Positions 10,484 to 33,308 of a stretch of 64,000 bases of DNA are shown piece after piece (positions within the stretch are counted from its first letter, which is position 1; every line of letters begins with the position of its first letter). The DNA is from an uncultured delta proteobacterium. Its GTDB lineage: Bacteria > Desulfobacterota > WTBG01 > CAIYCZ01 > CAIRTM01. The DNA is taken from assembly GCA_963723235.1 (NCBI GenBank), contig CAVRPV010000011.1, positions 129,177 to 193,176 of the forward strand, in the 5' to 3' direction. The position numbers and the translations under genes are program-made. The notes under the pieces are model-generated. The model did no database searches. It had not been told where the DNA came from and worked only from the letters and a program-made list of their open reading frames with translations.

Positions 10484-10518
10484 CAAAAATACGGGCCGCC
10501 TCTTGCGAAGCGGCCCGC
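10484..10518 (-). terminator. rho-independent terminator downstream of sulfatase S1
   Basis: Minus strand reads CGGGCCGC-TTCGCAAGAG-GCGGCCCG followed by TATTTTTG. It lies 23 nt after the S1 stop. Confidence 0.6.
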
Positions 10519-10540
10519 GTGGGTTCATGAATGAAACAAC

Positions 10541-13061
10541 TTATTTCGCGTCGCCGGCTTTCTGCATGCCTTCTTCGAGCTTCTTGATGTCCTCGGGCGA
10601 CAGCTTCGGCCGGTCAACCTTGATCGTCAGCTTGTTGAGCTTGCGCGGTCAGGGTGAACGGCGGCTGGTAGTCCGCGTCGTTCACGCCGGTCAGGGTGTC
10701 GGAGCCGATGTCGAAGCTCTCGTCCCATTGCAGGATCATCGGCAGCGTGTGCGGCATCTTATGGTTTGGACTGCCTTGCCGTCCACCTTGAGCGTGCCGG
10801 TGCCGGGCCGGCCGAGGCCGCTCATGTTGTTGAAGGCGAGCGTGCCCAGCGCCAAGGCCGTCATACTTGAAGTCGAACTCGATCGTGTGCTTGCCGGGCG
10901 TGAGCGCTTCGGGGCCTTCCCACTTGATGCGCTTCAGGTCGATCAGGTTCCAGAGAAACACCGGCTTGCCCTTGAGCAGGTAGAAGCCGTAGCCGGCAAA
11001 CCGGCCGCCCGAGGTCAGGATCATGCCTTCGGCGCCGCCTTCCGGGACGTCGATGTCCGCCGTGATGGTGTACGAAGCTGTTGAGCAGCAACGGCGAATC
11101 GCCCTGCGGCAGGCCGACCATGGGCCTGGTGTACACGAACTCGGTGCGGCCGGCGGTGATGTTCGGGCGCGGGGCCACGATGCGGGCCGCCACCGAGGCG
11201 TCCAGCGGGAAGACCTGATACTTCTTCGCTTCCTCGATGAACATCTTCTTCATCTCCTTCACTTTGTCCGGATACTTGTCGGCGAGGTTCTGGGACTGGC
11301 TGAAGTCCTTGTTCAGGTCGTAGAGTTCGAGCACCTGGTTGTTGAGCGGGTCGGGATTGGCTGCGCCGAAGGCCTCCCACGGCGCGCGGTTGACCTTGGT
11401 GCTCAGCAGCCAGCCTTCGTGATACAGGGCCCACTGGCCCATCATCTCGAAATACTGGGTCTTGTGCCGGGACGGCTCCTTGGCGTTCTTTTTGTCAAAC
11501 GTGTAGGCGAAGCTCGTGCCCTCGATCGGCGCCTGCTTGATGCCGTCCACGTATTCGGGTGCGGGGATGCCGCAGACCTCGAGGATGGTCGGCACGATAT
11601 CAATGACGTGGCATGAACTGCTCGCGCAGGCCGCCCTTGTCCTTGATGTGGCCCGGCCAGGAGACGCCATGCCTTGGCGGATGCCGCCGAGCTTCGAGGC
11701 GTTTTGCTTGAACCAGGTGAAGGGCGTATCAAAGGCCCAGGACCAGCCCGCCGACATGTGGTTGTAGGTCTGCTCCGTGCCCCAGACGTCATACCATTTC
11801 ATCTGCTCGGCGACGGGCACATGTCGACGCCGTTGAAGAACGCGACTTCGTTGGGCGTGCCCAGCGGGCCGCCCTCGGCGCTGGTGCCGTTGTCGCCGTT
11901 GATGTAGATGATGAGCGTGTTGTCGAGCTTGCCCATGTCCTCAATGGCCTGGATCACGCGGCCGATTTCGTGGTCGTTGTAGGCCGCATAGGCGGCGAAG
12001 ATTTCCACCTGCCTGATGAAGAGCTTCTTCTCCTCGGGCGTGCAGTCATCCCAGTTCTTGATGACATTCGTCGGCCAGGGCTCCAGCTTGGTGTCCGGCG
12101 GGATCACGCCGAGGCGCTTCTGATTCTCAAAAATCTGCTCGCGCAGCTTGTTCCAGCCGTCGTCGAAGAGGTGCATGGCGTGAATCTTGTCCACCCATTC
12201 CTTGGTCGGATGATGCGGCGCGTGCGTGGCGCCGGGAACGTAGTAGATGAAAAATGGCTTGTCCGGGTGCGATCTGGTGGACTGCGGTTCAGGTAGTCGA
12301 TGGCGTCGTCGGCCATGCCGGTAACCAGGTTCCAGCCCGGCTTGCCCTCGAAGGGATAGATCTGCGTGGTGTTGCGGAACAGGTTCGGCTGCCACTGGTT
12401 GGCGTCGCCGCCGACGAACCCGTAGAAATACTCAAAGCCCATGCCGATGGGCCATTGATCGAACGGCCCGACCTGGCTGGCCGCAAAAGCCGGCGTGTTG
12501 TGGTCCTTGCCGAACCACGAGGTGGCGTAGCCGTTGTCCAGCAGGATGCGGCCGATGGTGGCCTTGTCCTTGGCGATGATGCTGTTGTAGCCCGGAAAGC
12601 CGGTGGACTGCTCGGAGATCACGCCGAAGCCGGCCGAGTGATGGTTGCGGCCGGTGATCAGCGCGGCGCGCGTCGGCGAGCAGAGCGCGGTGGAGTGGAT
12701 GTTGTTGTAGCGCAGGCCGGTCTTGGCGATGCGGTCCATCGCCGGCGTCGGGATGACGCCGCCAAAGGTGCTCGGGCACGCCGAAGCCGGCGTCATCGGT
12801 CATGATGAGCAGGACGTTGGGCGCGCCCTTGGGCGGCACGATGCGCGGCGCCCACCAGGCTTTCGACTGCAGGGCGCCGTCCTTGATCACGCCGCCGAAT
12901 TTCGGATCGGGCGCGGGGAGCTGTTTGCCGTCGATGGTGGTGGTCGCGGCGGGCGAACCGGGCGTGCCGGTGATCTGCTGGGCCATGCGCGATACCCGGC
13001 GCTGTCAGAACGGCCGTGCCCAGGACACCGTACAGGAGATTATTCTTTGCTGCGTTTTCAT
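10541..13061 (-). CDS. arylsulfatase S1, ~800 aa AtsA(Rv0711)-like, Cys-type, secreted (at least 6 frame interruptions as assembled)
   Basis: Fragments 12432..12986, 12104..12796, 11799..12395, 10861..11820 and 10614..11024 tile one sulfatase. Signature [16 protein letters not shown], with the Cys codon at 12680-12682. ATG at 13061 follows AAAGGGGAA. Signal peptide [25 protein letters not shown]. Stop TAA at 10541-10543. Confidence 0.9.
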
Positions 13062-13108
13062 GTTTTCCCCTTTCTGATCGGGTTGGTATTAAATCACCTG
13101 CTTATAGT

Positions 13109-13195
13109 TGTAGGCCGGACTAAATCCGCAGCTGACGATCCGGCGATCTGTTGTCAATCTTTTGCCGGACACGCTCCGCTTTGTCCGGCCTACAA
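13109..13195. repeat. REP pair (inverted GTAG-type hairpins)
   Basis: TGTAGGCCGGACTAAATCCGCAG...CCGGC, a spacer, then GCCGGACACGCTCCGCTTTGTCCGGCCTACAA. Confidence 0.85.
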
Positions 13196-13257
13196 GTGTC
13201 ACAGGTCGCTTCGGTTTATGCCCACTGTTTACGTGGTGCTCTGTATTTATCGCCCTT

Positions 13258-13638
13258 CTAGCGCCTCTTATGTCTTCCCCCTGTCCGCTGATTGTTGAAC
13301 CATGCACGAGCCAGAAGGATCGTCAATATGGCGTGGAGCACCACCGCCGGCCACAACAGGCTCCCGACCCACTCGCCGCTCATGCCCAGCCAGGCGAGGT
13401 ACAGTGTGGCGAGCAGGCTGTAAGTCAACATTGCCGGCAGCCCGGAGGTGGCATCGCCGGCCGGCCAGCAGGCCAGGCCCAGGGCAATCAAAGCGATGCC
13501 GGCCACCCGGGCTACCGGGATGGAAACACCGGTAAGTTCTGCGCCGAACAACAGCCGCCCGACGAGCGACGGCACAATCAGCAGCGCCACGCCAGTCGCG
13601 GCTTCGCCAACAGCGGCAAAAACAAGCACCTTTTTCAT
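13258..13638 (-). CDS. small 4-TM membrane protein between the two tandem sulfatases
   Basis: ATG at 13638 follows an AAGGA RBS. Sequence MKKVLVFAAVGEAATGVALLIVPSLVG...; hydrophobic throughout. Confidence 0.6.
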   Translation of the reverse strand: MKKVLVFAAVGEAATGVALLIVPSLVGRLLFGAELTGVSIPVARVAGIALIALGLACWPAGDATSGLPAMLTYSLLATLYLAWLGMSGEWVGSLLWPAVVLHAILTILLARAWFNNQRTGGRHKRR

Positions 13639-13690
13639 CACATCCTTTCTACGCCTTTCGCGCCAGAGGTCCCGTGTTGCGCATCCGCCG

Positions 13691-16194
13691 CTAGTCACGG
13701 GCCCCGGCAACGGTCTTGTGCATCTGCTCGCGTTCCTCTGCAGTCACCTGTTCCGTCTCGAGATTGAAGGTGAGCTTGTTGATCGTGCCGGTGAACTTGA
13801 ACGGAGAGTCGTAGCGATACTCCAGCATCGCGACGCCGGTACGCGTGTCGCTGCCGATATCGAAGGTTTCGTCCTCCGGGAACGTGATCGGGGTCGAGTG
13901 TGCTCCATGGAATTTCTGGCCACTTCCTTGCCGTCCACGGAGAGCACGCCTGTGCCTCCCTTGCCCAGGCCCGGGCCATCGGACTTGAAGTCGAAGACGA
14001 TGGTGTGCTTGCCCGGCACTCAGCTCGGGACCCGTCCCAGATCGTGCGCTTGAGGTCGAGCAGGTTGTAGAGGAACACCGGCTTGCCCCGGCGAATACCC
14101 CCCACACCCTTGCTCAGGAAGAGCCCGTAGCCGCCGAAGCGGCCGCCGTCGGTGACGATCATGCCTTCCGCGCCCCCTTTGGGGATCGTGACCTCGGCGG
14201 TGATGGTGTACGACTTGTTCAGGATGCTCGGAGCGCCGCTGTTGGGCACGCCGGACAGCGCGCCCGAGTAGGTGAAGACCATTCGTCCCGCCGTGAGGTT
14301 CGGCCGCGGCGCGTTCCAGCGTGCAGTGACGAGTTGTCGAGCGGCAGCACGTCATGCTTCTGGTCGCCTCTGCGTAGAAGAGCTCCTGCATCTGCTTGAG
14401 CTTCTCCGGCATCTTGGCCGCCAGGTCGTTGAATTCGGTGGGGTCCTCCGGCGACGTTGTAGAGCTCCCACTTGTACCCGGTGATCACGTCGGGCGCGGG
14501 CTTGGTGCTCAGTTCCCACGGCAGCGTCGCCGGGGTCGTGCATGCCACCCACCCGTCATGGTAAATGGCGCGGTTGCCGAGCATCTCGAAATATTGCGTC
14601 GTGCGCCTGGACGCGGCGTTGGCGTTCGCCTTGTCCCAGGTGTAGGCCATGCTCACGCCGTCCATGGGGCGCTGCTTGATGCCGTTGAGCGTTTCCGGCG
14701 CCGGGATGCCGGTCGCCTCGAGGATGGTCGGAACGATGTCGATGACATGGTGAAACTGGCGGCGAATGCCGCCTGCGTCGTTGATGTGGCCGGGCCACGA
14801 CATGGCCATGCCCTGGGCCGTGCCGCCGAAATGCGACGCCACCTGCTTCATCCACTTGAACGGCGTGTCCATCGCCCATGCCCAGGGCGCCGCAAAGTGC
14901 GGGAAGGTCTTGTCCGATCCCCAGAACTCGTACCAGAGCAACTGGTCCTTGACCGGCACGGGAACGCCATTGAAGGTGGTGAACTCGTTCGGCGTGCCGT
15001 TGAGCATGCCCTCCGGCGCTCGCGCCGTTGTCGCCGCTGATGTAGATGATCAGGGTGTTGTCGAGCTGGCCCAGGTCTTCGACAGCCTGGATGACGCGGC
15101 CGATCTCGTGGTCGGTGTAGGCGAGGTAAGCCCCGTAGACGTCGGCCTGCTTGATGAAGAGCTTCTTCTCCTCCAAACCCGAGGGAATCCCACTCCGGCA
15201 GTTCCTTCGGCCACGGCGTCAGCTGAGCGTTCTCGGGCATGATGCCCAGCCGCTTCTGGTTGGCGAAGATGGTCTCGCGAATCTTGTTCCAGCCCTCGTC
15301 GAACAGGTGCATGTCGCTGATCTTCTTGATCCACTCCGGCGTCGGATGATGCGGCGCGTGCGTGCCGCCCGGCACGTAATAGACAAAGAACGGCTTGTCG
15401 GGCGCGATCGGCCTTGATCTGCTTCATGTACTGGATCGCTTCGTCGGCCATGGCCGTGGTCAGGTTCCAGCCCGGTTTGCCCTCGAAGGGATAGATGGCC
15501 GTCGTATTGCGGTACAGGTTCGGCTGCCACTGGCTGGCGTCGCCGCCGACGAAGCCGTAGAAGTACTCGAAGCCCATGCCGTTCGGCCACTGGTCGAAGG
15601 GCCCGGCCTGGGTCGCCTGATAAAAGGGCGTGTTGTGGTTCTTGCCGAACCACGAGGTCGCATACCCGTTCTCCTTCAGGATCTCACCGATGGTGCCGTT
15701 TTCCTTCCGGATGATCGAGTCGTAGCCCGGGAACCCTGTCGCAATTTCGCCCACGACCCCAAAGCCGGCCACGTGATGGTTGCGGCCGGTGATGAGAGCC
15801 GCGCGTGTGGGCGAGGAGAGCGACGTGGAGTGAAAATTCGTATAGCGCAGCCCGCTTTTCGCGATGCGATCCAGTGCCGGTGTCGGGACGACGCCGCCGA
15901 AGGTGCCCGGCGCGCCAAACCCGCAATCGTCGGTCATGATGAGCAGCACATTGGGCGCGCCCTTGGGCGGCACCACGCGCGGCGCCCACCACGCTGTCGA
16001 CTCCGAGGCCTTCTCCTTGATCACGCCGCCGAATTTCGGATCAGGCGGCGGGAGTTGCTTCCCGTCGATGGTGACGGTGGCGGTGGGCGAACCGGGTGTG
16101 CCGGTGATCTGCTGGGCCATAGCCTGCGCCCGGGGTGGTCAAAACGGCCGTGCTCAGCACTCCGTATAAGAAAATTCCTCTGTTGGGTTTTCAT
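13691..16194 (-). CDS. arylsulfatase S2, tandem paralog of S1, Ser at the formylglycine position as assembled (at least 5 frame interruptions)
   Basis: Fragments 15050..16120, 14848..15375, 14556..15176, 14219..15007, 13695..14282 and 13691..14107. Signature [17 protein letters not shown], with Ser codon tcc at 15814-15816. ATG at 16194 follows AAAGGGGAA. Signal peptide MKTQQRNFL.YGVLSTAVLTTPGAG. Confidence 0.9.
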
Positions 16195-16260
16195 ATGCTT
16201 CCCCTTTCTGCAATTTGATTTTTAAAACCCAAAGAACATGCAAGCGTGCATCCGCACACA

Positions 16261-16974
16261 TCAATTGATCCAGCCTTCCGCCTGAAATCGTATTTTGAGT
16301 TGATCGGCTATTTCCTTGGCGGTCTGTTTGGCCCGGCCCTCAACTTTGTCGCTGCCGCTTTCTTCCCCATAAATACTCATCCCGCTGCTGACAATGAGCC
16401 CAGCGGGATTATGTGTGGCAAGCAACACGGCAACTCCCAGCGCTCCTCCGGGTTTTTTTGAGCCTTCCGCATCTGTTTCACCTGATCCGAGCTTGCGCAA
16501 GCCCTGGTTCGTCACTTGAAAGCCTTCGACCATGGCTTTCAAATCAGTGTTGCCTGCCCCAAAGCCCAGGCCGATGCGCGCGGTCTCATCTCCCTTGGAG
16601 TAGGAAATAAGATAGCCCTTGATAACCAGATCGTTAATCTGCGGCATTGTGCCCTGCACAGCATGTACCGCCTGCATTCCCATAGCATTGATCTCGTTAA
16701 CCAGTTCCTGCTCGATCTCAGCACCAAGCGTGCGGCCCTCTGCAATTTGCTGAGGTGTTTGGGTTGTGCCGCCTTGAGGGAACTCGCCGGCAAGTGCGGA
16801 TTCGGGCGGAATATCAGCCGGCGTGGCTGCAAAATCATGTACCCAGATAGTGACAGGCCGCGGGAGTTGTTTGGATACGAGCACCTGACGGTTGGAAATT
16901 TTGGTTTCGGCGCACCCGATAGTCAGGCACAGAGCGACAAATAGAATACCTGTAACAGTGCATAGTTTGTTCAT
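16261..16974 (-). CDS. lipoprotein (DUF4410-like, by recollection)
   Basis: Intact 237-aa ORF beginning MNKLCTVTGILFVALCLTIGC (lipobox). It lies directly upstream of S2 on the same strand. Confidence 0.65.
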   Translation of the reverse strand: MNKLCTVTGILFVALCLTIGCAETKISNRQVLVSKQLPRPVTIWVHDFAATPADIPPESALAGEFPQGGTTQTPQQIAEGRTLGAEIEQELVNEINAMGMQAVHAVQGTMPQINDLVIKGYLISYSKGDETARIGLGFGAGNTDLKAMVEGFQVTNQGLRKLGSGETDAEGSKKPGGALGVAVLLATHNPAGLIVSSGMSIYGEESGSDKVEGRAKQTAKEIADQLKIRFQAEGWIN

Positions 16975-17037
16975 GGCTTCTCCTTTAAAAATGGTTTATG
17001 TGCTATGATAACGTGATTTATTGGTTTTTTTTAAATT

Positions 17038-17253
17038 TGTAGGCCGGACTAAATCCCGCAGGGCGGGATGAGTCCGGCAGTTTTGCATTGTCTTTTTGTG
17101 CCGGACACGCTGCGCTTTGTCAGGCCTACAATGCCACGGTTTCCAACCTGTCAAATTCGACCAGTAAGCATTGTAATGTAGGTCGGACTAAACGAATGAT
17201 CCGGCGGTTATCAACCTTATTGCCGGACACGCTGCGCTTTGTCCGGCCTACAA
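17038..17253. repeat. REP array (four hairpin units plus conserved linker)
   Basis: TGTAGGCCGGACTAAATCCCGCAGGGCGGGATGAGTCCGGC; GCCGGACACGCTGCGCTTTGTCAGGCCTACAA; linker tgccacggtttccaacctgtcaaattcgaccagtaagc; TGTAGGTCGGAC...; GCCGGACACGCTGCGCTTTGTCCGGCCTACAA. Confidence 0.9.
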
Positions 17254-17320
17254 ATGTTTCATAACGTTTAGTTCATTTCTGGCGTTTACCTTAGCTGTCC
17301 GGCATATGAGAATCCGCCAT

Positions 17321-17839
17321 CTATTCAAAATCCATATCCTGTGTGGATTGGGGCACAGCCGAGCCCCAATTGTTTTCATACAAACCCTGCTTAACAGCTT
17401 GCTTAAAAGAACTGTGCTCCCACTCTATCGGCCTTTGCACATATCCATGCTTTACCGGATTATAATGAATATAATCCATATGCCTGCGCCAATCCACATC
17501 ATCCCGGATCAGATGTTCCCAAAAACGCGGTTGCCAAACAGCCTTTTCCCGGCGCGCATTGCATTCCGCAGCAATGCCGACAGAAAAGAACCTCTTTATC
17601 ATCATCCAGCGTGTGGAAAAATCATGGTCTTTGCCGGGCAGCGTCCATATGCAATGAAGATGATCCGGCATTACCGCGATAGCATCAATTTCAAAAGGCC
17701 TTTTTGCCATGACATGTTTCAATGCGAGCCGGAGCCGTTCAACCGCATCTTTATTGGTCAATAAATGTCTGCGGCCATGTGTTACAACGGTAAAAAAGTA
17801 ACAGCCTCCGTCCGCATATGCCCTTTTATAGATACGCAT
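17321..17839 (-). CDS. REP-associated tyrosine transposase (RAYT, IS200/IS605 Y1-like)
   Basis: Intact 172-aa ORF. HUH motif in MPDHLHCIW and catalytic Tyr region YIHYNPVKHGYV. REPs lie on both sides. Confidence 0.9.
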   Translation of the reverse strand: MRIYKRAYADGGCYFFTVVTHGRRHLLTNKDAVERLRLALKHVMAKRPFEIDAIAVMPDHLHCIWTLPGKDHDFSTRWMMIKRFFSVGIAAECNARREKAVWQPRFWEHLIRDDVDWRRHMDYIHYNPVKHGYVQRPIEWEHSSFKQAVKQGLYENNWGSAVPQSTQDMDFE

Positions 17840-17881
17840 GATATTATTTTCTTATGTGTCCGTTATTTGTCACCCATTATT

Positions 17882-18057
17882 GCCGGACATGCTGCGCTTT
17901 GTCCGGCCTACAATGCAACGATTTTTAACTCGTCAAATTTGAGCAGTAAGAATTTTAATGTAGGCCGGACTAAATCCCGCAGAGCGGGATGAGTCCGGCG
18001 GTTTTTTTATGTGTCAACCATTATTGCCGGACATGCTGCGCTTTGTCCGGCCTACAA
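17882..18057. repeat. REP array (three hairpin units plus conserved linker)
   Basis: GCCGGACATGCTGCGCTTTGTCCGGCCTACAA; linker tgcaacgatttttaactcgtcaaatttgagcagtaag; TGTAGGCCGGACTAAATCCCGCAGAGCGGGATGAGTCCGGC; GCCGGACATGCTGCGCTTTGTCCGGCCTACAA. Confidence 0.9.
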
Positions 18058-18093
18058 TAATCAATGCCTTCAGGTTCGTTTCCGGCTTTTACC

Positions 18094-19350
18094 TTAATTC
18101 TCATCAAGCTTTATCACCAGGGGCGCATCGATTGCCTTCATCACATATGACGCAGGAAATCCGTTTTCCAGCAGCTGCGTCATCGCGTGCAAATATTTGC
18201 GGATATGATGAAAGAAATTGTTATATCCCGTGCACAGATACTGCAGGCCCGGTTCATTCGCACTTGTTGTTGCAAAGCGATGCTTGGGGCAGCCGCCCTG
18301 ACAGGCCGCCAAAACGCCGCACTCGCGGCACTCCTGCGGCAGGGCTGTTTCCTTTGACGTGCCGAACCCCGATTGCAGCGACTTATCCACCATCGCGGGA
18401 AGATCGCCGGTAAGAATGTTCCCGAGCTTATACTGCGGATACACACAGTGGTCGCAGGCATAGACATCGCCGTTGTGTTCAATCACCAGTGAGCGGCCGC
18501 ACTGTTTTGCATGGATGCAGACCGGCGAGGGGTTGCCGATCCAGGCATTGAGCGCCCACTCGAAGTTCATGACAAAAACTGTGCCCACATCATGGCGCAC
18601 CCACTCGTCATACACGGCGATAAGAAATTCGCCATAGTCCTCAGGTGTGACCGACCAGGGGGTGACCTGCGTATTGTTTTCCTGTTGGTCAAGCGCAGCA
18701 GGGCAGGCAAGGCGCAGGCCGCCTGCGCCGGCTCGGCAAGCCGCTCGACAACGGGCGCAAACTGTATGAACTCGATCCCCTCATCCCGAAAAAACCGGTA
18801 TACGTCCAGGGGCCGCTGTTGCTGTTTCACGGGCAACGCAGGCCAGCACGTTATAGTCAACCTTGTGTTTCTGCAGCAGCCGCAATCCCCGCATGACGTT
18901 ATCAAAGCTGCCCTTGCCGGCACGGTCGCGGCGATAGCGGTCGTGGATATCCTTCGGGCCGTCAATGCTGATGCCGACCATGAAGTTGTTTTGTTTGAGA
19001 AAGCGGCACCATGTGTCGTTAAGCAGCGTGCCATTGGTCTGCAGGGAATTGCTGATCGTCTTTTGTTTGGCAAAAGGCCGCTGCAGCTCGATGACTTTTT
19101 TAAAGAAATCTATTCCGAGCAGGGTAGGTTCCCCGCCCTGCCAGACGAACTCCACAACCGGCGTGGGCTGGGAGGTGATGTATTGCTTTATAAAGGCGGA
19201 AAGCACGTCATCGGGCATGCGGTACTGCTCACCTGCGCCGAACAGCGCCTGCTTCTCAAGATAAAAGCAGTACTCGCAGTTGAGATTGCAGGCCGGGCCC
19301 GTGGGCTTGGCAAGCAGATGGATGCCCTGCGCGGCTTGCGGCCCGCCCAT
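18094..19350 (-). CDS. anaerobic sulfatase-maturating enzyme 1 (radical SAM/SPASM, AslB/AtsB/ChuR family; at least 2 frame interruptions)
   Basis: N-terminal fragment 18781..19350 has AKPTGPACNLNCEYCFY (CxxxCxxC) and QGGEPTL. C-terminal fragment 18094..18615 has the Cys-rich SPASM region (YACDHC...CRECGVLAACQGGCPKHRF). Confidence 0.9.
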
Positions 19351-19444
19351 CGGACATATTGGGCATATACCTCATCAAAATTATAGTGTTGTTGGCTTAC
19401 AATGTTATTTTGCTGCTGTTATTTTCTACAGATATCTCCGTTTG

Positions 19445-20487: not shown

Positions 20488-20517
20488 GGAATCGCTCCTT
20501 TCTGAGCTTAGATAGAA

Positions 20518-20543
20518 GCGGGCGGCTCTTGCGAGCCGCCCGC
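20518..20543 (-). other. GC-rich intercistronic hairpin between sulfatase S3 and the HAD gene
   Basis: GCGGGCGGCTC-TTGC-GAGCCGCCCGC. On the minus strand it has a GCAA loop and no clear U-tract. Confidence 0.4.
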
Positions 20544-23776: not shown

Positions 23777-24538
23777 TTACTGGCTGATCTTCTCCATCAA
23801 GTACTCAAGCGTGCTCTCGGCAAGCAGCATGTCCCGCAGACGCTGCAGCCCACCTCCTTTCTCAAGTTCTGCCTGCAATGATTTCTTTGTCGTTTTAAAT
23901 TCTTCGGCCTTCTCGGCAATGCGTTTGTCAACATCGGTATCGTCAACCTCGATGCCTTCCTGCCGCGCTATCTGCTTCAGGATCAGCATCAGTTTTATCT
24001 GGTTTTGCGCGGCCTGCCACTCCGGGCTGCCTGGTGCGCTGCCGTCGATACCATCAAAGGCGAGTTCATCCTTCACCAGACCTGTCAGGGATATCGAAGC
24101 TCACCAGCTCCAGAAGCTTCAGCGATATCTGGTCGCGGGGGTCGACGCTTCCGTCATCGATTTTCAGGCTGCTCAAATCCGGCAGCTCGATCTTCGGCAT
24201 GGGATAAAAGCGCAGCTGAGCGCGAAAGATCTCGCCTCGCGCGCACTCAATATCCTCTGCCTCCGCAAGACCCAAAACCTCAATCCCGGCTTCCCGGACA
24301 GCCTCGCGGCCCAGGCGCTGCGCAGCTCGATACGGAAAGATCTTCGATGATTTCTTTCTGAAAGCGCTTCTCGATCACGCTGCGCGGGACCTTGCCCGGC
24401 CGGAAGCCCGGAACGGAGGCCTTGGCATACCCGGCCACGACGTCGTCGTAATCGGCGGCAAGCTCGGACCACTCGGCCTCGACCTTCAGGCGGTGATAGC
24501 CGTCATTGCTAGTTGTTATCTAATGGGGTGGTTTTCAT
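23777..24538 (-). CDS. short trigger-factor-like protein lacking the PPIase domain (about 3 frame interruptions)
   Basis: ATG at 24538. N-domain ribosome-binding signature VPGFRPGKVPRSVIEKRF. The C-terminal fragment 23777..24076 resembles the TF C-domain end (LILKQIARQEGIEVDDTDVDKRIAEKAEEF). Total length is only about 250 aa. Confidence 0.6.
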
Positions 24539-24605: not shown

Positions 24606-25981
24606 TCAATTTAATTTCTGTGCAGGTTGGGTTGAGATACGAAACCCAACGCAATGTTTTCCGGGCTTAACCCTAACCCTACTAAAAAAAATCTTCATTC
24701 CCAGACCCGACACCCGACACTTTCCCCTCCTCACCCTCTTCTCCGGCTGCCAGTGCTCTGCGGCATGCGTACGGACCTCTTTGACCACTGTTTGCCCCAG
24801 ATCCCGCACGATCTTCTGCACGGGCTCATCGATATGGGAGAAAAACTTTTTCCAGCCGCTGCACAGGTAATTCAGCCCTGCCTCGCCCTCGGAGGTCTTG
24901 ATGAAGCGGTTCTTCGGGCACTCCCCGAAGCAGGTGAACTGGTAGTCGCACCTGCGGCATTGCTCCGGGAGCAAACCCTCCTTCATCATGCCGAATTTTT
25001 CCTGCTGCTTCGAGTAGGCCATGTCCGCGAGCGGCCGCTCCTGCAGGTTGCCGGCGCAATACTCCGGATAAACATAATGGTCGCAGGCATAGACTGATCC
25101 GTCGCGCTCAAGCGCCATACCCTTGCCGCACAGGGGGCCCTGCGTGCAAAGCGGCGACACATGGCCCATCCAGGTCTCAACCGCCGCCTCGAAATAGTTC
25201 ACATAGATTTTGCCAAGGTCTTTGCGATGCCACTCATCAAAGACGCGGCAGAGAAAATCGCCCCAGTCATCGGGGTCAACGCTCCACTCCTCCACAGCCG
25301 ATCCCTCGGTGCCGGGCCGCGCCTGGGGCGAGCCCTGCACCGGCATCAGGTTGCACGTCCCATCGCTGGGGCGCAATACTCTGGAAGCCCACGGGCTCGA
25401 CAATCGGAATGAACTGCATTCTTTTTGATCCCACCTGATCGCGCAGGAACCGGTATACCTCAAGCGGTCGTTGTGCCGTTAGCCGGTTGACGCAGGAGAG
25501 TGTTGCGAAGTTCACCTTGTGCTTTCTCAGCAGCTTTGAAGCGCGAAAGGCGCGGTCGAAGCTCCCCTTGCCCGCTGTATCTTTTCGATAAGTGTCGTGC
25601 AGACTGCTTCGGCCCGTCGATAGAGAGACCGACAAGGAAGTTTTCATCATGGAGAAACCTGCACCAGTCGTCGTCCAGCAGCGTGCCGTTGGTCTGCAGA
25701 TCGTTTTCGCAGCGCACATGGGCCGGGCAGTATTTCTTCTCAAGCTCAACAACTCTCCGGAAGAAGTCAAGGCCCAGCAGGGTCGGCTCGCCGCCCTGCC
25801 AGGAGAAGACCACCTCTTTGTAGTTCTGGCTTTCAAAGTATTGGCGGATAAATGCCTCAAGCACTTCATCGGCTATGCGCCATTGTTCAGGCCTGCCCAG
25901 CAGTTCCTGCTTGGAGAGATAGTAGCAGTAGGCGCAGTCAAGATTGCACAGCGAGCCCGTGGGCTTCACCATCACATGCAT
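24606..25981 (-). CDS. anaerobic sulfatase-maturating enzyme 2 (radical SAM/SPASM; at least 2 frame interruptions; C-terminal end uncertain)
   Basis: Fragment 25460..25981 has VKPTGSLCNLDCAYCYY and WQGGEPTL. Fragment 24606..25463 has YACDHYVYPEY...CRRCDYQFTCFGECPKNRF. The last ~40 codons may be read-through past a T8 run near 24684. Confidence 0.9.
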
Positions 25982-26074
25982 GCGCCGATGGGCTTGCCGC
26001 GAAAAATCTGCATTTTATGCTGCCAAATGTCCGTCATGCTGTCTTCGCAAGTCTGCATATTTGCAGTAAGGTTT

Positions 26075-26558: not shown

Positions 26559-26667
26559 GCCGGACACGCTGCGCTCTTCGCACTTCGCTCAGGGTCATGC
26601 TTTGTCCGGCTTTGCGCCAATTCGTTTTTGTAGGCCGGACTAAACCGCAGGGCGGGATGAGTCCGGC
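26559..26667. repeat. REP pair (long variant plus GTAG hairpin)
   Basis: GCCGGACACGCTGCGCTCTTCGCACTTCGCTCAGGGTCATGCTTTGTCCGGC ... TGTAGGCCGGACTAAACCGCAGGGCGGGATGAGTCCGGC. Confidence 0.8.
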
Positions 26668-26782
26668 AGTTTTTATTAATCTGTTTGTTGAACACGTCCG
26701 CTGCAGCGGATCCAGCCGGCTTACTGCCCAAGCTGGGAGAGCGCATACTGCAGCGGTGCGCTTGATACCTTGATCAGCCCAC

Positions 26783-27483
26783 TCAAGTGGAGTCGCTCAT
26801 CTCCAAGACCAGAAAGATTGAGCCGGAAACCGCCAGTGCGCAGAGCACAATAGAAACGATAACTGTTGCATTGCGTGGTGCAAGCAGGCCAAAGCCGCCG
26901 AATAAAATGCAGAGCCAGAATGCCAGCACCACCAGAAAAGGCATCGGAAGCGGGTTTTTTCCTGCGCGAACACCAGCCAGCGCATAGCCATCAGGTCACG
27001 GCCGATTTGCTGTGCCTGCGCCTTGCACTCGCGCTGGGCATCAGTCTGCGGGGAGAGTTTGCCGATACCGCCCCACAGAGCTTCGACCGCCTGCAGCTTC
27101 TCGCGAGTATCCATGTTCACCGGCGGGGCATCTTTTTCAGGCCATGTCGCATGCAGCCTGTCGGTTATGATCTGTTTGAACTGCTCACGGATCAGTTTCG
27201 TCTCCGGCCCGTAATGGGCAAGGGCCCGGTCAAGCTGAATGCTATTGGCGGCGCTCTGCTGAATCTCACTGTTGCTCAGGTCAAAGGTGCTCTTTGCCGA
27301 GGAGGTCAGCAGGCCCAGCACAAGGGCGGCCAATGTGGCAATCAGGCCCATGGAAAGCTTTATGACCTCCTTTGAGTCTTTGCTGAGATGATGCTCAGGC
27401 AGCATCGAGTTGATAATGATGCCGGCAATGGCGCTCATGAAGACGCACGCGAACACGATCAAGGAGATTGCTAATGGACTCAT
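26783..27483 (-). CDS. membrane protein (DUF4239-like, by recollection; one frame interruption near 26950)
   Basis: ORF 26797..27483. Shifting frame after WLVFAQE restores two TM helices, NPLPMPFLVVLAFWLCILFGGFGLLAPRNATVIVSIVLCALAVSGSIFLVLEMSDST*. Confidence 0.55.
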
Positions 27484-27538
27484 GTTTTTAAACCGCTCTA
27501 TTGTTTATACAACAAACGTTTTTTTAAGCCAGCCGAAC

Positions 27539-28198
27539 CTATGACTGAAACGGCTGAATTTTCATCTCAACACGGCGGTTGAGCATGCGTCCTTCCGGAG
27601 TGCTGTTGTCGGCAACGGGGCTGGCTTTTCCCATGCCGATGGTCGTCAGCCGGGAAGCGCTGACGCCCTGCATGACCAGAGCATTTTTTACTGCATCGGC
27701 CCGCTTCTGCGACAGCTGCAGATTATAGGCTTCAGAGCCTGTGCTGTCGGTATAGCCCGCTATCTGTATGGTGGTATCGGGATACTGGTTGAGAATTCCC
27801 GCCACACGGGCGATTTCCCCGGAGCTGTAAGCGCCGGGCTGAATGGCGGATGAATTATGGGCAAACAGCACATCTGATTTGAACGTGACAATAAGGGCGT
27901 TCTGTTCCTTCTTCACACCCTGCAGAATTGCCGCCTGAGTCTGCGCCTGCGACTCGGCAAGCGCCTGCTTGAATTCGCGCTCCTGCTTGTCCATCATATA
28001 CCCGATACCGCCGCCGACAAGGCCGCCCAGCACCGCGCCTGCCGCCGCACCTTTGCCCCCGCCGATTGCATAGCCAAGACCGGCTCCAAGTATTGTTCCT
28101 GCGGCGACGCCGATTGAGGTTTTCTTGTTTTCCTGTATGGTTGCGCAGCCCGGAAGCATGAGCGCTATACAAAGCAGCACGGTTAGTAATTTTTTCAT
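27539..28198 (-). CDS. OmpA-family lipoprotein with glycine-zipper segment
   Basis: Intact 219-aa ORF. Lipobox LMLPGC, Gly-zipper GAGLGYAIGGGKGAAAGAVLGGLVGGGIG, and OmpA_C motifs GYTDSTGSEAYNLQLSQKRA and NRRVE. Confidence 0.9.
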   Translation of the reverse strand: MKKLLTVLLCIALMLPGCATIQENKKTSIGVAAGTILGAGLGYAIGGGKGAAAGAVLGGLVGGGIGYMMDKQEREFKQALAESQAQTQAAILQGVKKEQNALIVTFKSDVLFAHNSSAIQPGAYSSGEIARVAGILNQYPDTTIQIAGYTDSTGSEAYNLQLSQKRADAVKNALVMQGVSASRLTTIGMGKASPVADNSTPEGRMLNRRVEMKIQPFQS

Positions 28199-28269
28199 GA
28201 AAATTCTCCCTTTATGCGTTTTGTAAAATCAGCAATTCTGCGCTGCTGCACGAATGGTTGCCGTCAGTA

Positions 28270-28749
28270 TTACTGCAGCGGATGGCCGGCAATGCCGGTT
28301 TTAAGCTTGGGCTTGATGAGCGCATCCCATATGACCCGGATGACCGGAACATCAAGCTTTGCCGGGTTTGCCGCGTAATAGCCATCCGCGGCAAGCACGA
28401 TATCGTTTAGTTTCGCGCCGGCCAGCCCTTCCGCAGCCTTGGCGGAAAAGTTTTGCACTTTCAGTGAAGGGAATTTTTCCATCAGCATTTGCTCGATGGT
28501 TATCACGTGGCAGATGCCCCACACAAAACTCACTTTCTCTGCCTGAGTCGCCTTTTGCCATTCAATGCCGGTAAGCAGGGGCATGCCCATTTCTGCAAGC
28601 TGCTTATCAACATCATCCCTGAATTGAGTCTTTTCTTTTTTTTGCTCCTCTGTTTCTGCCCGTGCGGAGCTTAGCGCGCAACAGGCAACAGCCGCACATA
28701 CCGCAATAACCAGAAAGCTAACAATCGTTTTCTTTCTTTTCATGCTCAC
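28270..28749 (-). CDS. secreted hypothetical protein
   Basis: 159-aa ORF with an N-terminal signal-like segment KKTIVSFLVIAVCAAVACCALSSARA. Confidence 0.55.
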   Translation of the reverse strand: MSMKRKKTIVSFLVIAVCAAVACCALSSARAETEEQKKEKTQFRDDVDKQLAEMGMPLLTGIEWQKATQAEKVSFVWGICHVITIEQMLMEKFPSLKVQNFSAKAAEGLAGAKLNDIVLAADGYYAANPAKLDVPVIRVIWDALIKPKLKTGIAGHPLQ

Positions 28750-28877
28750 GTCTCCTTGTTGTGATTGTATCGGTGAAGGGCTGCTTTAAAAGTTATACGG
28801 TACCATCAAACTAATTGTGCCGTTTTATAGACATTCTGTGAAATATACAGCTGTGGTTTTTTTTGGGTCCGGGCCGC

Positions 28878-30143
28878 TTAAAATTTATAGACAATATTCA
28901 TATTGAAGACAGTAATGTAGTTCGTATTGTATTTTCCCTTGAGTTCGCCCCGCAGCGGCCCGCCTTCCTGATCGACACGGGAACTGCCGGCATCAATCAG
29001 TTCAAAAGCCCCGCCGATGGTAATATCATTGTTTATTTCATACTGCAGGCCCGTGGCATAGCGGATCTGACGATCAAGAGGGAGCACGGGTGAGCGGTCC
29101 TGCGCTTTGTCAATCGGCGATGTGTCATAGGCAACCCCCGCGCTCATCAGCCACTTGGGCGCGATACGGTACTGGGCCCCGAGCGCGACATGGTAGGTGT
29201 CCTGGTAGTCAAGGTCGTCGGTAAGCGAATTCGTTGCTCTGCCGGTTTCGACGCTGATCTCCGGCTCGCCGAATCGGCTCCAGTCCTGCCAGCCGAGATT
29301 TGCGCACAGGGCGAGCTCCGGGGTAAGCTGATGCCAGATGCTGAACATGATGTCCTGCGGAATGGTCGTGTCAATCGAGAGGTTTTTTAACACATCCGGC
29401 AGGGCACTAATGATCCAGCCTTCTTTGTTGACGTCAGGCTTATCGCTGAAGTTCAGATCCACTGCCGAGCGGTAGGTAAGGCCAAGACGCGTCTGTTTGC
29501 TGAGTTCAAGCAAAATGCCGAGATTATAGCCATAGCCGATATCCGTATCTTTGTATTTCAGGCTGCCATCGTCCTGACCGGGCCTCGGCGAATTAACAGC
29601 CACCTTGGTATACATCTTCCCCCCGACAACGCTGACACCGCCGCCAATGGAGATATAATCGTTCAGCCGGTAGCCGATTGAAGGATTGATACAGGCTGTC
29701 AGAAATTCTGCGTCCTGGACATAATATCTGCCCGACCAGCCATCGCCATAATCAAGTCCCAGGCCAAAATAGGAGCCCGAGTAAATTCCGAGCCGGAGGT
29801 CGTCGTTAACCTTGTGCACATAGGCAAATGTTCCGCTCGGCATAAACCCGCCGGCATCGCCGCCGCCACCGCCGCTGTTGGTTGCGCTGTCGACATGGAA
29901 TTTTGATGTTACGTTTATGCCCAGGAAGCCGCCGACAAGCTGGCTGCGGTCGAGTACGGTCATTGCAGCCGGGTTGCCGAAGGCGGTTGAGGCATCAAGG
30001 GCTGATGCCGCCCGGCCCGCATTGGCCATGCCCATGTCGGGGATGGCGCCTTCATACATCCAGAGCCCGCCTGCAAAAGCATGCCCCCTTGCCATGATCA
30101 TAAAAAACAGCAGCAATAGTATTCTTAAAACTTTTTTATTCAT
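28878..30143 (-). CDS. FadL/OMPP1/TodX-family outer-membrane channel for hydrophobic compounds
   Basis: Intact 421-aa ORF with a signal peptide. N-terminal GMANAGRAASALDASTAFGNPAAM is typical of FadL-family proteins. Aromatic C-terminal residue (..VYKF). Confidence 0.8.
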   Translation of the reverse strand: MNKKVLRILLLLFFMIMARGHAFAGGLWMYEGAIPDMGMANAGRAASALDASTAFGNPAAMTVLDRSQLVGGFLGINVTSKFHVDSATNSGGGGGDAGGFMPSGTFAYVHKVNDDLRLGIYSGSYFGLGLDYGDGWSGRYYVQDAEFLTACINPSIGYRLNDYISIGGGVSVVGGKMYTKVAVNSPRPGQDDGSLKYKDTDIGYGYNLGILLELSKQTRLGLTYRSAVDLNFSDKPDVNKEGWIISALPDVLKNLSIDTTIPQDIMFSIWHQLTPELALCANLGWQDWSRFGEPEISVETGRATNSLTDDLDYQDTYHVALGAQYRIAPKWLMSAGVAYDTSPIDKAQDRSPVLPLDRQIRYATGLQYEINNDITIGGAFELIDAGSSRVDQEGGPLRGELKGKYNTNYITVFNMNIVYKF

Positions 30144-30330
30144 TTTCCCCCCTTAAATATTGAACAATCTGGTAGTACACTCCGTGTATAGCACACTGTT
30201 ACATTGTAAGAAAATATTATTTTTCAATAAACAATTGGGGATATAGCCTGTTCTCAATTGCGCATTTTGCAGACTGGCAAAAACCGCCGCAGGGGATGTC
30301 CGGCATTAAAATATTACAGAACCGGCTGCT

Positions 30331-31267
30331 TTAGAGATCAAACAGCGCGCCCTTGATGAGCTTCGGGATCACCGGCGTTACCACCAAGTTGTATGTTCCA
30401 CATCTGGCCGAAGTCGTCCGGCCGTATGGGCATGTACTGCGCTGCAAGGCCGAGCTTAACCGGCAGCCTGCCGAACTTGACGACCTTATTGACCGCAACT
30501 CCAACGGGCACGGTCCAGCGGTTGTCCTTCTCCTCCTCCCAGTTTGCAAGTATGTTGCCAGAATACCCCACGCTCCAACCGTCTTTTAAAAACCACGCGG
30601 CAATGGGCTGCAAGTTCATCTGGTTCGTGTGATCGCGGTCTTTGTCGCCGGCAAATGACGACCAGTTTTGGACGAAAGCTCCGAGTATCCATTTTTCTGA
30701 AAGATAGCCTGCCACTGCCGCCGGACCCGCTTGCCACTTTTCCTGACCCGTGTATTTCGATGTGGCCGTGGGAAGAATAAACGTGGGCCCGACGCCGAGC
30801 AGCCAATGGCCGACAAGGCTGGGGCCGGGAGAAAACATTTCAGCTACAATGGTATCGCCAAAGGCCGTTGTGCGCCGATAGTCCACATTGGGCTTCGAGC
30901 CCCCGTTTTTTTCGGACACGTGCGGATAGGGCGTGGAGTTGAAAAGCTGAAATACGGGCCGTGTTATGAGATTCCAGTCTTTGGTGAGCGCTACGGGCAT
31001 CACGGGCTGAAACTGCAAATTTGACTGCCAGCGGCCGGGATGGCTAAGGTGATAATTGTTCTGCTGAATCACCAGGGACCAGATAGTGCTCACCGGGTTG
31101 GCGAGCTCCTTGTTGAGTTCAGTTGCTGACTTGCCCTGGTTTTCATCCTCTGCCGCCGGGACGACTGCCTCAGGCTTGACCTCGGCATCCCCTGCGATGC
31201 CTGCAGTTGGAGCAAGAACAAGAAACAGTACGGTCGTGATCAACAATAATTTGATCAAAATTTTCAT
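30331..31267 (-). CDS. outer-membrane beta-barrel protein (MetA-pathway/'transporter' family-like; one frame interruption near the 3' end)
   Basis: ORF 30338..31267 has a signal peptide. Shifting frame gives the C-terminus ...MWNIQLVVTPVIPKLIKGALFDL* (ORF 30331..30549). Confidence 0.6.
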
Positions 31268-31537
31268 TATGCAGTACCTTTTTCCCGGCTAAGAGTTGTA
31301 TTTGATAGCATATTGACAACGTCAGCCGCAGCGAATTCAACAGACTAGGGTTTTAAATCAAACACCTTGAGTTTCCTGGCCGCCGTACCGAACTGCCCGA
31401 GCTGATAAACGGCAGCGCCAGCCGGCGAGAAGGTGAAGTTCTCGAACGGTTCGGCAAGCTGCATGTCACTCAGATGCTGCATTTCACAATTGACGGGAGC
31501 GGCCCCGGAGAATTTCCCGGAGCCGCCCGCCGAATGT

Positions 31538-33215
31538 TTATTGTCCCGGAAGGCCCAGGTTGAAGCCGTCTTTCCCAAGCTGTTCGCGGAGCCACTGAAA
31601 CTTCTGGTATTTGGAGATTTCGACCGGACCGTCGTAGCCCATGCTCTGGAGCTTGCGCGGAGGGTACTGCGCATAAGTCTTCATCAGCCCCATGATTGCC
31701 TCGGTAATGGGGATCATGGTCCAGGTCCGCTCCGTCCAGTTGGTCATAAAAAGGTCATACCGTTCCTGAGGGTCCTGCAAAAGGTCGAATATCTGGGGAA
31801 TGGTGGCAACATATTTTTCCGCGCCCTTCCAGCCGAGATTGGTGTCCACGGCAAGACCTCCGGTCGGTTGCCCATTATCGCCGCGCAGGTTGAACACGGC
31901 TTTGTAGTTGCCGACACGGGCTGCGCCGGGGGAAAGCTCGTTCTCAGTGAAGTAGAACCATGAACTGCGTGCCGACTTGCCGGTGCCAAAGAGAACCGGT
32001 GACATGTCATAGCTGTCAAAAATAATGGGCTGCCCCTCGCGGTCCTTCTCCGGAAGCTTGATTCCTGCGAGCGAAGCAAAGGTAGCCATGTAATCCAGTC
32101 CGCCCAAGATGTCGTGATTCTTTGAACCGGCCTTGATCTTCGGCCCCCAGGCAATAGCGGGAACGCGGTTGCCGCCTTCACGCACCGTGCCTTTGGTACC
32201 CCGGAACGGCGTGTAGCCGGCATCCGGGTAAACGTCCTGCCAGGCACCGTTGTCCGTGGTCCAGAAAATATACGTGTTCTTGTCGAGGCCCAGCTGACGA
32301 ACCTTATCGACCACTCTGCCGATCCGCGTGTCGTTCTCTACGAGGGAATCAGCGTACTTGCTCTTGGAGATCGATTTATGCTTGAACTCAGGAGCGGGCA
32401 TGTTCGGCTGATGCACCTTCATAAAGTTGATGCTCATGAAGAACGGCTTGTCGGATTTTGCCGCCTTGTCGAGATAGTCAAGAGCCGCCTTCTCGATGTA
32501 CTGGTCGATGAACGGAATCCCGACCACACCCTTCTCGGGAGTGTTGACATACTGGCCGTTGATTTTGAATTCTGTAATCGCCTTCTCGCCTGCTTTTCCG
32601 GAGAGGGCACCCTTGGTCACTTTGTCAAACATCTCTCGCAGCTTTGGATCCATTTCGGGGAACCAGGTCGGGTCGCCATAGGTATAGGCATTAAGGTGAT
32701 AGAGCCCGCAATATTTCATCTCGTCATAGCCCTGATTTATGGGCAGAGCATAATCGGCCTCGCCCAGGTGCCATTTGCCGGTGAAGAAAGTCTGGTAGCC
32801 GCCGGTCTTTAGCACCGATGCCAGGGTCCACTCCGCGGCCGGCAGCCCGCCGCCCTGGCCCTGAAAGGCCACGGTGGTCATGCCGCTGCGGTTGGGGATG
32901 CGGCCGGTCTGCACCGCTGCGCGGCCCGGCGTGCAGCTCGGCTGCGCATAGAACGAGAAGAAGGTCATGCCCTTCGCTGCCAATTTGTCGAGGCTGGGCG
33001 TGGGCATGCCGCGGCCCTCGCCGCCGCCATAGGGCCCCGCAGTCTCCGTAACCGAAGTCATCGGACAAGATCAGGATGATATTGGGTTTGCTCCCCTGCT
33101 TGGGAGCATCAGCGGCCTGCGCCGGCGCTGCCGCAGCGCTCACAGTGAACCCTGCCAGCACGCACCCGACTGCCGCCCACTTGCGGGCCTTTCTCTTTAG
33201 ATCTTCTTTTCTCAT
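31538..33215 (-). CDS. sulfatase S4, ~555 aa, Cys-type (CxPxR), secreted (one frame interruption near 33050)
   Basis: ORF 31538..33061 (YAQPSCTPGRAAVQTGRIPNRSGMTTV, GKWHLGE) joins N-terminal [58 protein letters not shown] from ORF 32724..33401. ATG at 33215. Confidence 0.9.
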
Positions 33216-33308
33216 CACATTGACCTCCCTGTCTGTGTTGCACGGTTCCCGGCAAGAACATGGATAAGCAGCCTTTCCGCCTCTCATGTCTTCCCGGTGT
33301 TTCTGTTG
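33216..33308 (-). promoter_or_regulatory. conserved 5' leader shared with sulfatase S3
   Basis: See 22230-22322. The imperfect palindrome TTCCCGGCAAGAACATG...CATGTCTTCCCGG spans 33247-33297. Confidence 0.4.

Follow-up and report, generated by a model that had tools for sequence, protein, structure and literature searches.

Our subject is a sulfatase locus in a 64-kb stretch of DNA from an uncultured delta proteobacterium (GenBank assembly GCA_963723235.1, contig CAVRPV010000011.1, positions 129,177 to 193,176 of the forward strand). We call this whole stretch the window and count positions from its first letter. Genes and families in the window were called from a listing of open reading frames (ORFs) and from Pfam and NCBIfam profile searches. 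By the ORF listing, almost everything from 9.4 to 34.4 kb lies on the minus strand, and this region holds four sulfatases (S1 to S4), two anaerobic sulfatase-maturating enzymes (anSME1 and anSME2), a secreted HAD hydrolase, a gene resembling trigger factor (TF) and two outer-membrane channels. None of the seven enzymes (S1 to S4, the HAD hydrolase, anSME1 and anSME2) is one ORF in the sequence as given; they are spread over two or three frames. We obtained frame-corrected genes with a protein-to-DNA aligner that tolerates frameshifts, written for this analysis, with a Rhizobium binae p2 arylsulfatase, a Microvirga sp. VF16 arylsulfatase and HAD protein, a Pantoea anSME and intact metagenome proteins as references. 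Corrected in this way, the genes start and end, on the minus strand, where an initial annotation made from the letters had placed them. Two relatives serve for comparison: R (ENA ERZ25039462 contig_28208), which is 93-98% identical to the window across the shared DNA, and L054 (the metagenome-assembled genome (MAG) MFD00032.bin.2.161), a relative more distant than R. The main genes are as follows.

10541-13061, minus strand: S1, PAS/AtsA-like arylsulfatase of ~800 aa, Cys-type (CSPTR), signal peptide, 10 frameshifts
13691-16194, minus strand: S2, arylsulfatase of ~800 aa, Ser-type (SSPTR), signal peptide, 9 frameshifts
18094-19350, minus strand: anSME1, anaerobic sulfatase maturase, cytoplasmic, 2 frameshifts
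19460-20487, minus strand: HAD hydrolase, secreted, DNDGT motif, 9 frameshifts, 64% GC
20563-22229, minus strand: S3, sulfatase of ~555 aa, CTAGR, 14 frameshifts
22484-23725, minus strand: secreted 413-aa protein, intact, part of the conserved core
23777-24538, minus strand: TF-like gene, ~250 aa, Trigger_N and Trigger_C domains, GFRPGKVP, at least 2 frameshifts, directly after anSME2
24606-25981, minus strand: anSME2, anaerobic sulfatase maturase, 2 frameshifts, core gene common to R and L054
28878-30143, minus strand: FadL/TodX channel, intact, PF03349 at 236.4 bits over profile positions 5-421 of 421
30331-31267, minus strand: COG4313/Phenol_MetA_deg-like channel of 309 aa, 12-strand, 1 frameshift near the 3' end
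31538-33215, minus strand: S4, sulfatase of ~555 aa, CTPGR, 1 frameshift

All four sulfatases named by the initial annotation match PF00884 (Sulfatase), with 134.7 bits for S4, 101 bits for a fragment of S2 and 25.7 bits for a fragment of S3 (cut-off 25). The [C/S]-x-[P/A]-x-R signatures that it had seen read, after frame correction, as the four motifs listed above, and the signal peptides that it had assigned are present on S1 to S4 and on the HAD hydrolase once the start codons are read; those of S1, S2 and the HAD hydrolase require additional frame corrections. Corrected sulfatases align with the sequences of solved sulfatase structures at E values of 1e-52 to 1e-56, the nearest being Pseudomonas aeruginosa AtsA (1HDH, E 1e-55) for S2 and the arylsulfatase 7AJ0 for S3. 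S1 is a paralogue of S2, and S2 was the one of this pair compared with solved-structure sequences. By frameshift-aware alignment, S1 and S2 are 64% and 81% identical, respectively, to an R. binae arylsulfatase, S3 is 81% identical to the Microvirga arylsulfatase and S4 is 79% identical to an intact 551-aa metagenome protein (P0143).

Two leaders are shared among the sulfatases, one by S1 and S2 (MKTQQR...LYGVL.TAVLT.PG) and another by S3 and S4. The DNA of the 5' untranslated region and signal peptide of S3 and S4 (22147-22254 and 33133-33240) is 92% identical, and the mature parts belong to different sulfatase lineages. The shared leader, which resembles that of a Smithella sulfatase, suggests exchange by recombination; S3 has a mature part like that of the alphaproteobacterial (Microvirga) plasmid sulfatase behind a host-type leader.

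The formylglycine codon of S2 is TCC (Ser); it is TGC (Cys) in a contig whose copy is 92% identical in DNA and has unrelated neighbours (L002), and in 118/120 close homologues. Ser-type copies occur also in a metagenome sequence (P0047) and in a Desulfobacteraceae MAG (L046). A Ser active site as a general mark of anaerobic versions was rejected, as all 34 real motifs found beside an anSME and a TF-like gene are Cys-type. Family-wide truncation of the close S2 homologues was likewise rejected; the homologues listed reach only ~1.75 times the query length, the longest listed having 414 aa when the query had 237 aa, and 331 aa when it had 189 aa.

Both maturases carry Radical_SAM and SPASM domains by Pfam, and after correction they score 518.6 bits (anSME1) and 478.5 bits (anSME2) against TIGR03942, whose equivalog cut-off is 349.45 bits; the uncorrected fragments each score below it. 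The CxxxCxxC motif noted earlier is found in both (CNLNCEYC and CNLDCAYC). Each aligns end to end with the Clostridium enzyme anSMEcpe (4K36; E 1.6e-63 for anSME1 and 7.6e-64 for anSME2), and the CX3CX2C cysteines and the SPASM cysteines of the two auxiliary 4Fe-4S clusters all align. anSME1 is ~80% identical to a deltaproteobacterial anSME and anSME2 is 54% identical to its alignment reference. Unlike the sulfatases and the HAD hydrolase, the maturases have no signal peptide.

The HAD hydrolase, described before as secreted with a DNDGT motif, indeed shows FDNDGTLW and reaches 36 bits against PF12710 (cut-off 27); with the HAD-IB subfamily model it scores 28 bits, below the cut-off of 45. It matches the sequence of PDB 4OVY at E 1.5e-125, a structural-genomics entry without assigned function, and is 67% identical to the Microvirga HAD protein. 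The 413-aa secreted protein has no family match in Pfam or NCBIfam; its gene is present in R (92% identity) and in L054.

The TF-like gene was absent from the gene list of the initial annotation. Copies lie elsewhere at 7374-8122 in L054, 7462-8160 in a Smithella locus (L090), 6902-7654 in L055 and 9112-9845 in R (L010). Three of the orthologues score 58-91 bits for Trigger_N and 38-67 bits for Trigger_C, above threshold for both, and the residues of the ribosome-binding signature GFRxGxxP are invariant in the TF-like alignment. No FKBP-type peptidyl-prolyl isomerase (PPIase) domain lies between the N and C domains of these ~250-aa proteins. They are not tig equivalogs by TIGR00115: an intact Smithella orthologue reaches 96.1 bits against a cut-off of 180. 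The pair of anSME2 and the TF-like gene is found also in R, L054, L090 and L055, and L090, from a short-read assembly, holds an intact operon of anSME, TF-like gene, CTAGR sulfatase, HAD hydrolase and FadL.

In a metagenome scan, the TF-like alignment found 66 loci, 31-69% identical. The gene directly upstream is an anSME in 37/42 of these and the gene directly downstream a sulfatase in 31/38, with sulfatase motifs CTAGR in 28, CSPTR in 5 and CTPGR in 1; as the scan patterns were built from anSME-linked sequences, these counts show that this TF-like subfamily is anSME-linked, not that every anSME has such a partner. We found no literature tying trigger factor to an anaerobic sulfatase or to sulfatase maturation in a search that left most subscription papers outside. 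That the TF-like gene travels with the activating enzyme is the main new point of this work.

GTDB species genomes scanned with the corrected HAD protein gave 80 loci at 70-90% identity. They come from Verrucomicrobiota, Planctomycetota, Acidobacteriota, Nitrospiraceae, many Proteobacteria and many deltaproteobacterial MAGs, the last including Syntrophorhabdaceae, Desulfatibacillum, Desulfosarcina, Syntrophus and Smithella. Where there was enough flank, the gene directly upstream of HAD, and on its strand, is a sulfatase in 34/67 loci. The family of the 309-aa barrel occurs in 11 of the 80 loci, FadL in 4, an anSME in 5 and the formylglycine-generating enzyme (FGE) in 8. More broadly, many MAGs of anaerobes and many metagenome contigs bring together the same gene kinds: anSME, sulfatase, secreted HAD hydrolase and a FadL or COG4313-like channel. 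The proposal of the initial annotation, an oxygen-independent periplasmic locus for sulfate esters, fits both the family memberships and this recurrence in anaerobes.

The channels required one revision. The FadL-family assignment stands on a full-length Pfam match, and the gene is 97% identical in R. For the second beta-barrel, no PF13557 match was obtained over 30338-31267 even at E up to 5; several homologues that are 56-66% identical to it carry PF13557 in precomputed annotation. Its AlphaFold2 model (pLDDT 83.6, pTM 0.76) has an N-terminal helix at residues 48-56 before the barrel strands, and Foldseek matched the model to the COG4313 channel 4RL8 (E 6.7e-07, TM 0.52-0.59) and to FapF, the two together spanning TM 0.52-0.60; the strand count of 12 is taken from the matched structures. 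The predicted structure thus agrees with the earlier assignment of an outer-membrane channel beside S4. Three such channels had been counted between 10484 and 33308, and we find only two there: the product of 27539-28198 is no channel but a lipoprotein with a Gly-zipper and an OmpA C-terminal domain.

A third true channel, Phenol_MetA_deg at 36911-37987, lies outside that range. It belongs to a 3.66-kb segment within 35464-39225, with an MliC-domain protein and a DUF3313 protein; direct repeats of 100 nt, 96% identical to each other, bound the segment, and R has a single repeat and no segment. Short remnants of channel paralogues lie at 8703-8822 and 34504-34595; they are a fragment with 57% protein identity to the 309-aa barrel and a copy of the FadL 5' end with 84% identity.

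We compared the window with described systems. As in Klebsiella atsBA and the anSME systems of Bacteroides and Clostridium (AtsB, ChuR and anSMEcpe), a radical-SAM/SPASM maturase is encoded next to type-I sulfatases that are exported, the CX3CX2C motif is kept along with the two auxiliary clusters, both maturases pass TIGR03942 once corrected, and Cys-type and Ser-type substrates are both present. The window differs in having two maturase paralogues for four sulfatases of two size classes, a TF-like gene between maturase and sulfatase, an attached secreted HAD hydrolase and hydrophobic-solute channels, and no glycan-utilisation genes in its annotated region.

The Pantoea sp. SOD02 plasmid has FadL-family, arylsulfatase, anSME and MoxR genes in an operon, the first three in a row, and so the same channel, sulfatase and maturase neighbours. 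Its proteins are distant (32% identity for FadL and S4, ~50% for anSME2), and the operon is without a HAD hydrolase, a TF-like gene or a COG4313 channel. We found no literature on FadL with an anaerobic sulfatase, most subscription papers again being outside the search.

For the TF-like gene, the closest analogy in the text available to us is PceT/RdhT, where a TF paralogue sits in the operon of an exported enzyme that depends on a cofactor or modification; these TF-like chaperones of reductive dehalogenases are thought to hold the precursor before export (work cited in PMC8905343). The TF-like protein of the window, unlike PceT/RdhT, keeps the N-terminal ribosome-binding domain (GFRxGxxP) and is without the PPIase domain, and its client would, by this analogy, be a Sec-exported sulfatase and not a Tat-exported corrinoid enzyme. 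PceT has a domain arrangement opposite to that of the sulfatase-linked protein.

A further system compared is the plasmid arylsulfatase cassette of Microvirga sp. VF16 (pMVF16-5) and R. binae (p2). The order and strand are the same: a ~560-aa CTAGR sulfatase, a secreted HAD hydrolase, and a ~820-aa sulfatase with a small membrane partner; identities to the window are 81% for S3, 67% for the HAD hydrolase and 81% for S2. On the Microvirga plasmid the order is FGE, S3-like sulfatase, a hypothetical gene, HAD and S2-like sulfatase. Whereas Microvirga has FGE upstream, the window has anSME1 between the HAD gene and S2 and no FGE; its S2 is also Ser-type and its S3 has the host-type leader. Because the Microvirga plasmid has the same gene order, we read this part of the window as a cassette of alphaproteobacterial-plasmid type in which an anSME has replaced the aerobic maturase FGE.

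Comparison with R and L054 shows that the region is a mosaic. In R the order is P-type ATPase ... FadL, bestrophin-like gene, anSME2, TF-like gene, 413-aa gene, DUF3313, CorA ... EF-G. R lacks 5608-22435 (S1, S2, DUF4410, RAYT, anSME1, HAD and S3), 27040-28877, and 30116-33357 (the barrel and S4; 3.2 kb). L054 has anSME1, RAYT and an 800-aa sulfatase, and then anSME2, TF-like gene, 550-aa sulfatase, HAD, barrel and 413-aa gene. GC is 61-64% in S1, S2, S3 and HAD and ~50-55% in neighbouring host-type genes. The initial annotation had treated the region as a single supercluster. That unity did not hold up, as R is without S1 to S4, HAD and anSME1, the modules are reordered in L054, and S1, S2, S3 and HAD have foreign composition and relatives in unrelated contexts. 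The gene-neighbourhood comparison that it had proposed thus bears out the recurrence of the gene kinds and not the unity of the cluster. Comparison with the close relatives shows a lineage core (FadL, anSME2, the TF-like gene and the 413-aa gene) to which mobile cassettes, S3 with HAD and S2 with the small membrane protein, of the type seen on alphaproteobacterial plasmids, were added. The remaining features of the region are these.

10491-10518, minus strand: terminator-like hairpin, 12-bp stem then a T run, right after the S1 stop
13258-13710, minus strand: small membrane protein of 150 aa, conserved directly downstream of S2-type sulfatases
16261-16974, minus strand: DUF4410 lipoprotein, intact; PF14366, 68.6 bits
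17321-17839, minus strand: RAYT (REP-associated tyrosine transposase, IS200-like Y1_Tnp), by Pfam and the repeat families D3, D8 and D10
26797-27483, minus strand: bestrophin-like membrane protein, PF14023, its 3' part present in R
27539-28198, minus strand: OmpA-family lipoprotein with a Gly-zipper and an OmpA C-terminal domain, within 1.8 kb that R lacks
7052-7208, 13145-13196, 17038-17254, 17863-18058, 22367-22433, 26627-26673, 34727-34775 and 45602-45646: REP (repetitive extragenic palindrome) copies

The 150-aa membrane protein was also found by tblastn after the sulfatase in L001, L003 and a Rhizobium plasmid (L011). The bestrophin-like protein may be a bystander. The REP-like palindromes belong to a family (GCCGGACA...TGTCCGGC) whose densest copies flank RAYT on both sides (17038-17254 and 17863-18058); further copies lie in core DNA, at the boundary of S3 and in the interval from S1 to S2. 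Terminator-like sites in the window are no commoner than in shuffled sequence, promoter-like matches are consensus matches only, the hairpin after S1 is the single informative feature of that scan, and Rfam and tRNA scans gave no matches.

A second family of intergenic repeats, of ~114 nt, has direct and inverted copies at 217-330, 45418-45531, 52584-52697 and 62630-62742. In the low-GC left part of the stretch that R lacks, Fic/DOC and RhuM-family fragments and a MarC-family membrane gene (5893-6861, 7964-8619) are each split across several frames. Elsewhere in the window, a ferredoxin-dependent bilin reductase-like protein (PF05996; 52915-53610, minus strand) is encoded only a few genes away from a GAF-GAF histidine kinase (56923-58863, minus strand), a pairing unexpected for a presumably non-phototrophic anaerobe.

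We read the region, which comes from a Desulfobacterota-type MAG, as a functioning locus built of modules that hydrolyses sulfate esters independently of oxygen, with cassettes on a lineage core and with frameshifts that are long-read errors; we put the probability of this reading at roughly 0.72. In the mechanism that we propose, cytoplasmic anSME1 and anSME2 would convert the active-site Cys (Ser in S2) of the four precursors to formylglycine, and the precursors would then be exported via Sec, the short TF paralogue probably holding the nascent or unfolded sulfatase for that step. Sulfate esters would enter by the FadL-type and COG4313-type channels, and the periplasmic sulfatases would act on small sulfate esters alongside the secreted HAD hydrolase. 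By analogy with AtsB- and anSME-type enzymes, formylglycine would form cytoplasmically while the precursor is still unfolded, with Sec export and periplasmic action to follow. The neighbourhood suggests that the HAD hydrolase may act on the same substrates or products and that the FadL and COG4313-like channels may admit small or hydrophobic sulfate esters. Small or hydrophobic substrates are a reasonable expectation given two channels of hydrophobic-solute type and no glycan-uptake genes in the annotated region.

For the TF-like protein, its neighbours point to a probable role as a holdase or an adaptor. More tentatively, and at somewhat less than even odds, we propose that this short TF paralogue, with its N and C domains and no PPIase, serves anaerobic sulfatase maturation as a third component dedicated to it. 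Docked at the exit of the ribosome, it would prevent nascent Sec-targeted sulfatases from folding, or pass them to the anSME, so that formylglycine forms before export; its clients would be mainly of the S-C-T-A-G-R type. The operon of anSME, TF-like gene, sulfatase, secreted HAD hydrolase and FadL or COG4313 channel would then be an undescribed and widespread pathway by which small sulfate esters are used in anoxic soil and sediment.

The locus could be real while the channels, the HAD hydrolase and the TF-like protein are mere neighbours, the sulfatases serving general sulfur scavenging with no dedicated uptake or chaperone. FadL belongs to the conserved core and in R adjoins anSME2 with no sulfatase nearby, it occurs in just 4/80 HAD loci, and no regulator was identified in the cluster. 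However, the adjacency of sulfatase and HAD (34/67) and of anSME, TF-like gene and sulfatase (37/42 and 31/38) persists over wide divergence, with TF-like identity down to 31%, and a FadL or COG4313-like barrel recurs beside the modules in unrelated taxa. We regard coincidental neighbours as unlikely.

Several points weigh against a working locus broken only in the assembly. Its function and operon structure are deduced from sequence. In the window the TF-like gene precedes the 413-aa gene and not a sulfatase, and the Ser of S2 hangs on one base (TCC against TGC) in an error-prone assembly. Frameshifts per kb follow GC content, with 0 up to ~56%, 0.6-2.7 at 57-61% and 3.8-9.7 at 61-64%; the sites avoid homopolymers, which is not how Nanopore errors typically fall, and a poor consensus across an island that varies between strains may be an alternative source of the frameshifts. 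Finally, the sulfatase, HAD and anSME genes could be true pseudogenes, an acquired island being inactivated by real frameshifts. This would account for 47 frame corrections across seven genes, for their highest density in foreign high-GC genes next to intact host-type genes, for sites outside homopolymers, and for the complete lack of these island genes in R, the closest relative.

The lesions themselves speak otherwise. The ~11 kb of cluster coding sequence in the seven enzymes holds no in-frame stop. In 12 genes, the 64 frame corrections comprise 53 1-nt insertions and 11 deletions; in real bacterial pseudogenes deletions usually exceed insertions. Between S2 and its 92%-identical relative dN/dS is 0.18, and other pairs of S2-type homologues give 0.13-0.19. 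The housekeeping genes alaS and recA and a P-type ATPase in the same window carry the same type of lesion: alaS has 7 frameshifts, recA 1 and the P-type ATPase 6, the last in a gene 97% identical to an intact 910-aa protein. Since alaS and recA share the damage, we judge the frameshifts to be assembly errors.

The positions of the frameshifts were also compared. In alaS and the ATPase, the window and R are broken at different places. One site is common: an insertion in anSME2, CAG[T]CTGCAC at reference residue 153, is the same in the window (near 25609, within 24819-25987) and in R (L010 7622), and the L054 anSME2 frameshift (6504) lies 2 residues from it; 18 other loci, nearly all short-read, read through this site. 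Conserved or programmed frameshift positions were rejected, since the indels of S1, S2 and L001-L003 fall at different places and the shared anSME2 site is read through in those 18 loci. A methylation-type motif was rejected as well, the sites showing weak GTC/GAC k-mer enrichment without a clear motif or a homopolymer link.

R and L054 are taken as long-read assemblies from their contig and MAG names, and the window is presumably alike. The related contigs and MAGs bear names in the style of the Microflora Danica project, whose assembly was Nanopore-only with Medaka polishing once (PMC12313526). Because housekeeping genes are hit, insertions prevail, dN/dS is 0.18, positions are independent and the one shared site looks systematic, the frameshifts are probably long-read assembly errors and not gene decay. 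The initial annotation had allowed for genuinely decayed sulfatases: the fragmentation is there, in all seven enzymes, and real decay is unlikely, since housekeeping genes are broken likewise and lesions are not confined to the cluster. True pseudogenes are in our view quite improbable.

Last, the high-GC segments (S1/S2 and S3/HAD) would be foreign to the genome if they were chimeric joins or mis-polished consensus from abundant soil Proteobacteria, as the quite different context of the 92%-identical S2 contig, the jump in GC from ~50% to 61-64% at gene boundaries and the error density peaking exactly in these segments might suggest, but this is highly improbable because host REP elements lie between S1 and S2 (13145-13196) and at the S3 boundary (22367-22433), S3 bears the host-type leader that it shares at 92% with S4 and that is similar to a Smithella sulfatase leader, and the order anSME1, RAYT, 800-aa sulfatase is repeated in L054, an independent MAG from another sample with a sulfatase of 61.5% GC; host DNA also alternates with three distinct foreign segments, all of them on a single strand.

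Sulfatase-anSME loci in anaerobes, including Deltaproteobacteria, are already known. Sulfatases and maturases of uncultured Desulfatiglans-related Deltaproteobacteria have been proposed to open organic sulfate esters as a carbon and sulfate source (PMC6129605); the accessible text of that report, on another habitat, gives gene lists and describes no conserved operon, HAD hydrolase, channel or chaperone. What is new here is a recurrent operon with a TF-like gene and a secreted HAD hydrolase, and an aerobic-type cassette that has been re-fitted. The locus and its relatives show aerobic-type cassettes adapted to anaerobic life by a swapped maturase, an added host leader and possibly the change of one active site to Ser. 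For annotation, the window is a warning that long-read MAGs can hold dense, GC-linked, non-homopolymer frameshift errors that mimic pseudogenisation.

The TF-like gene offers a testable answer to how a cytoplasmic radical-SAM enzyme reaches a Sec substrate before export, and its product may aid heterologous production of active sulfatases. In soils and sediments, ester sulfate forms a large organic-sulfur pool, and the anaerobes that release it, and how they do so, are poorly known. Together with its relatives, this locus marks out a recurring set of genes for releasing ester sulfate without oxygen.

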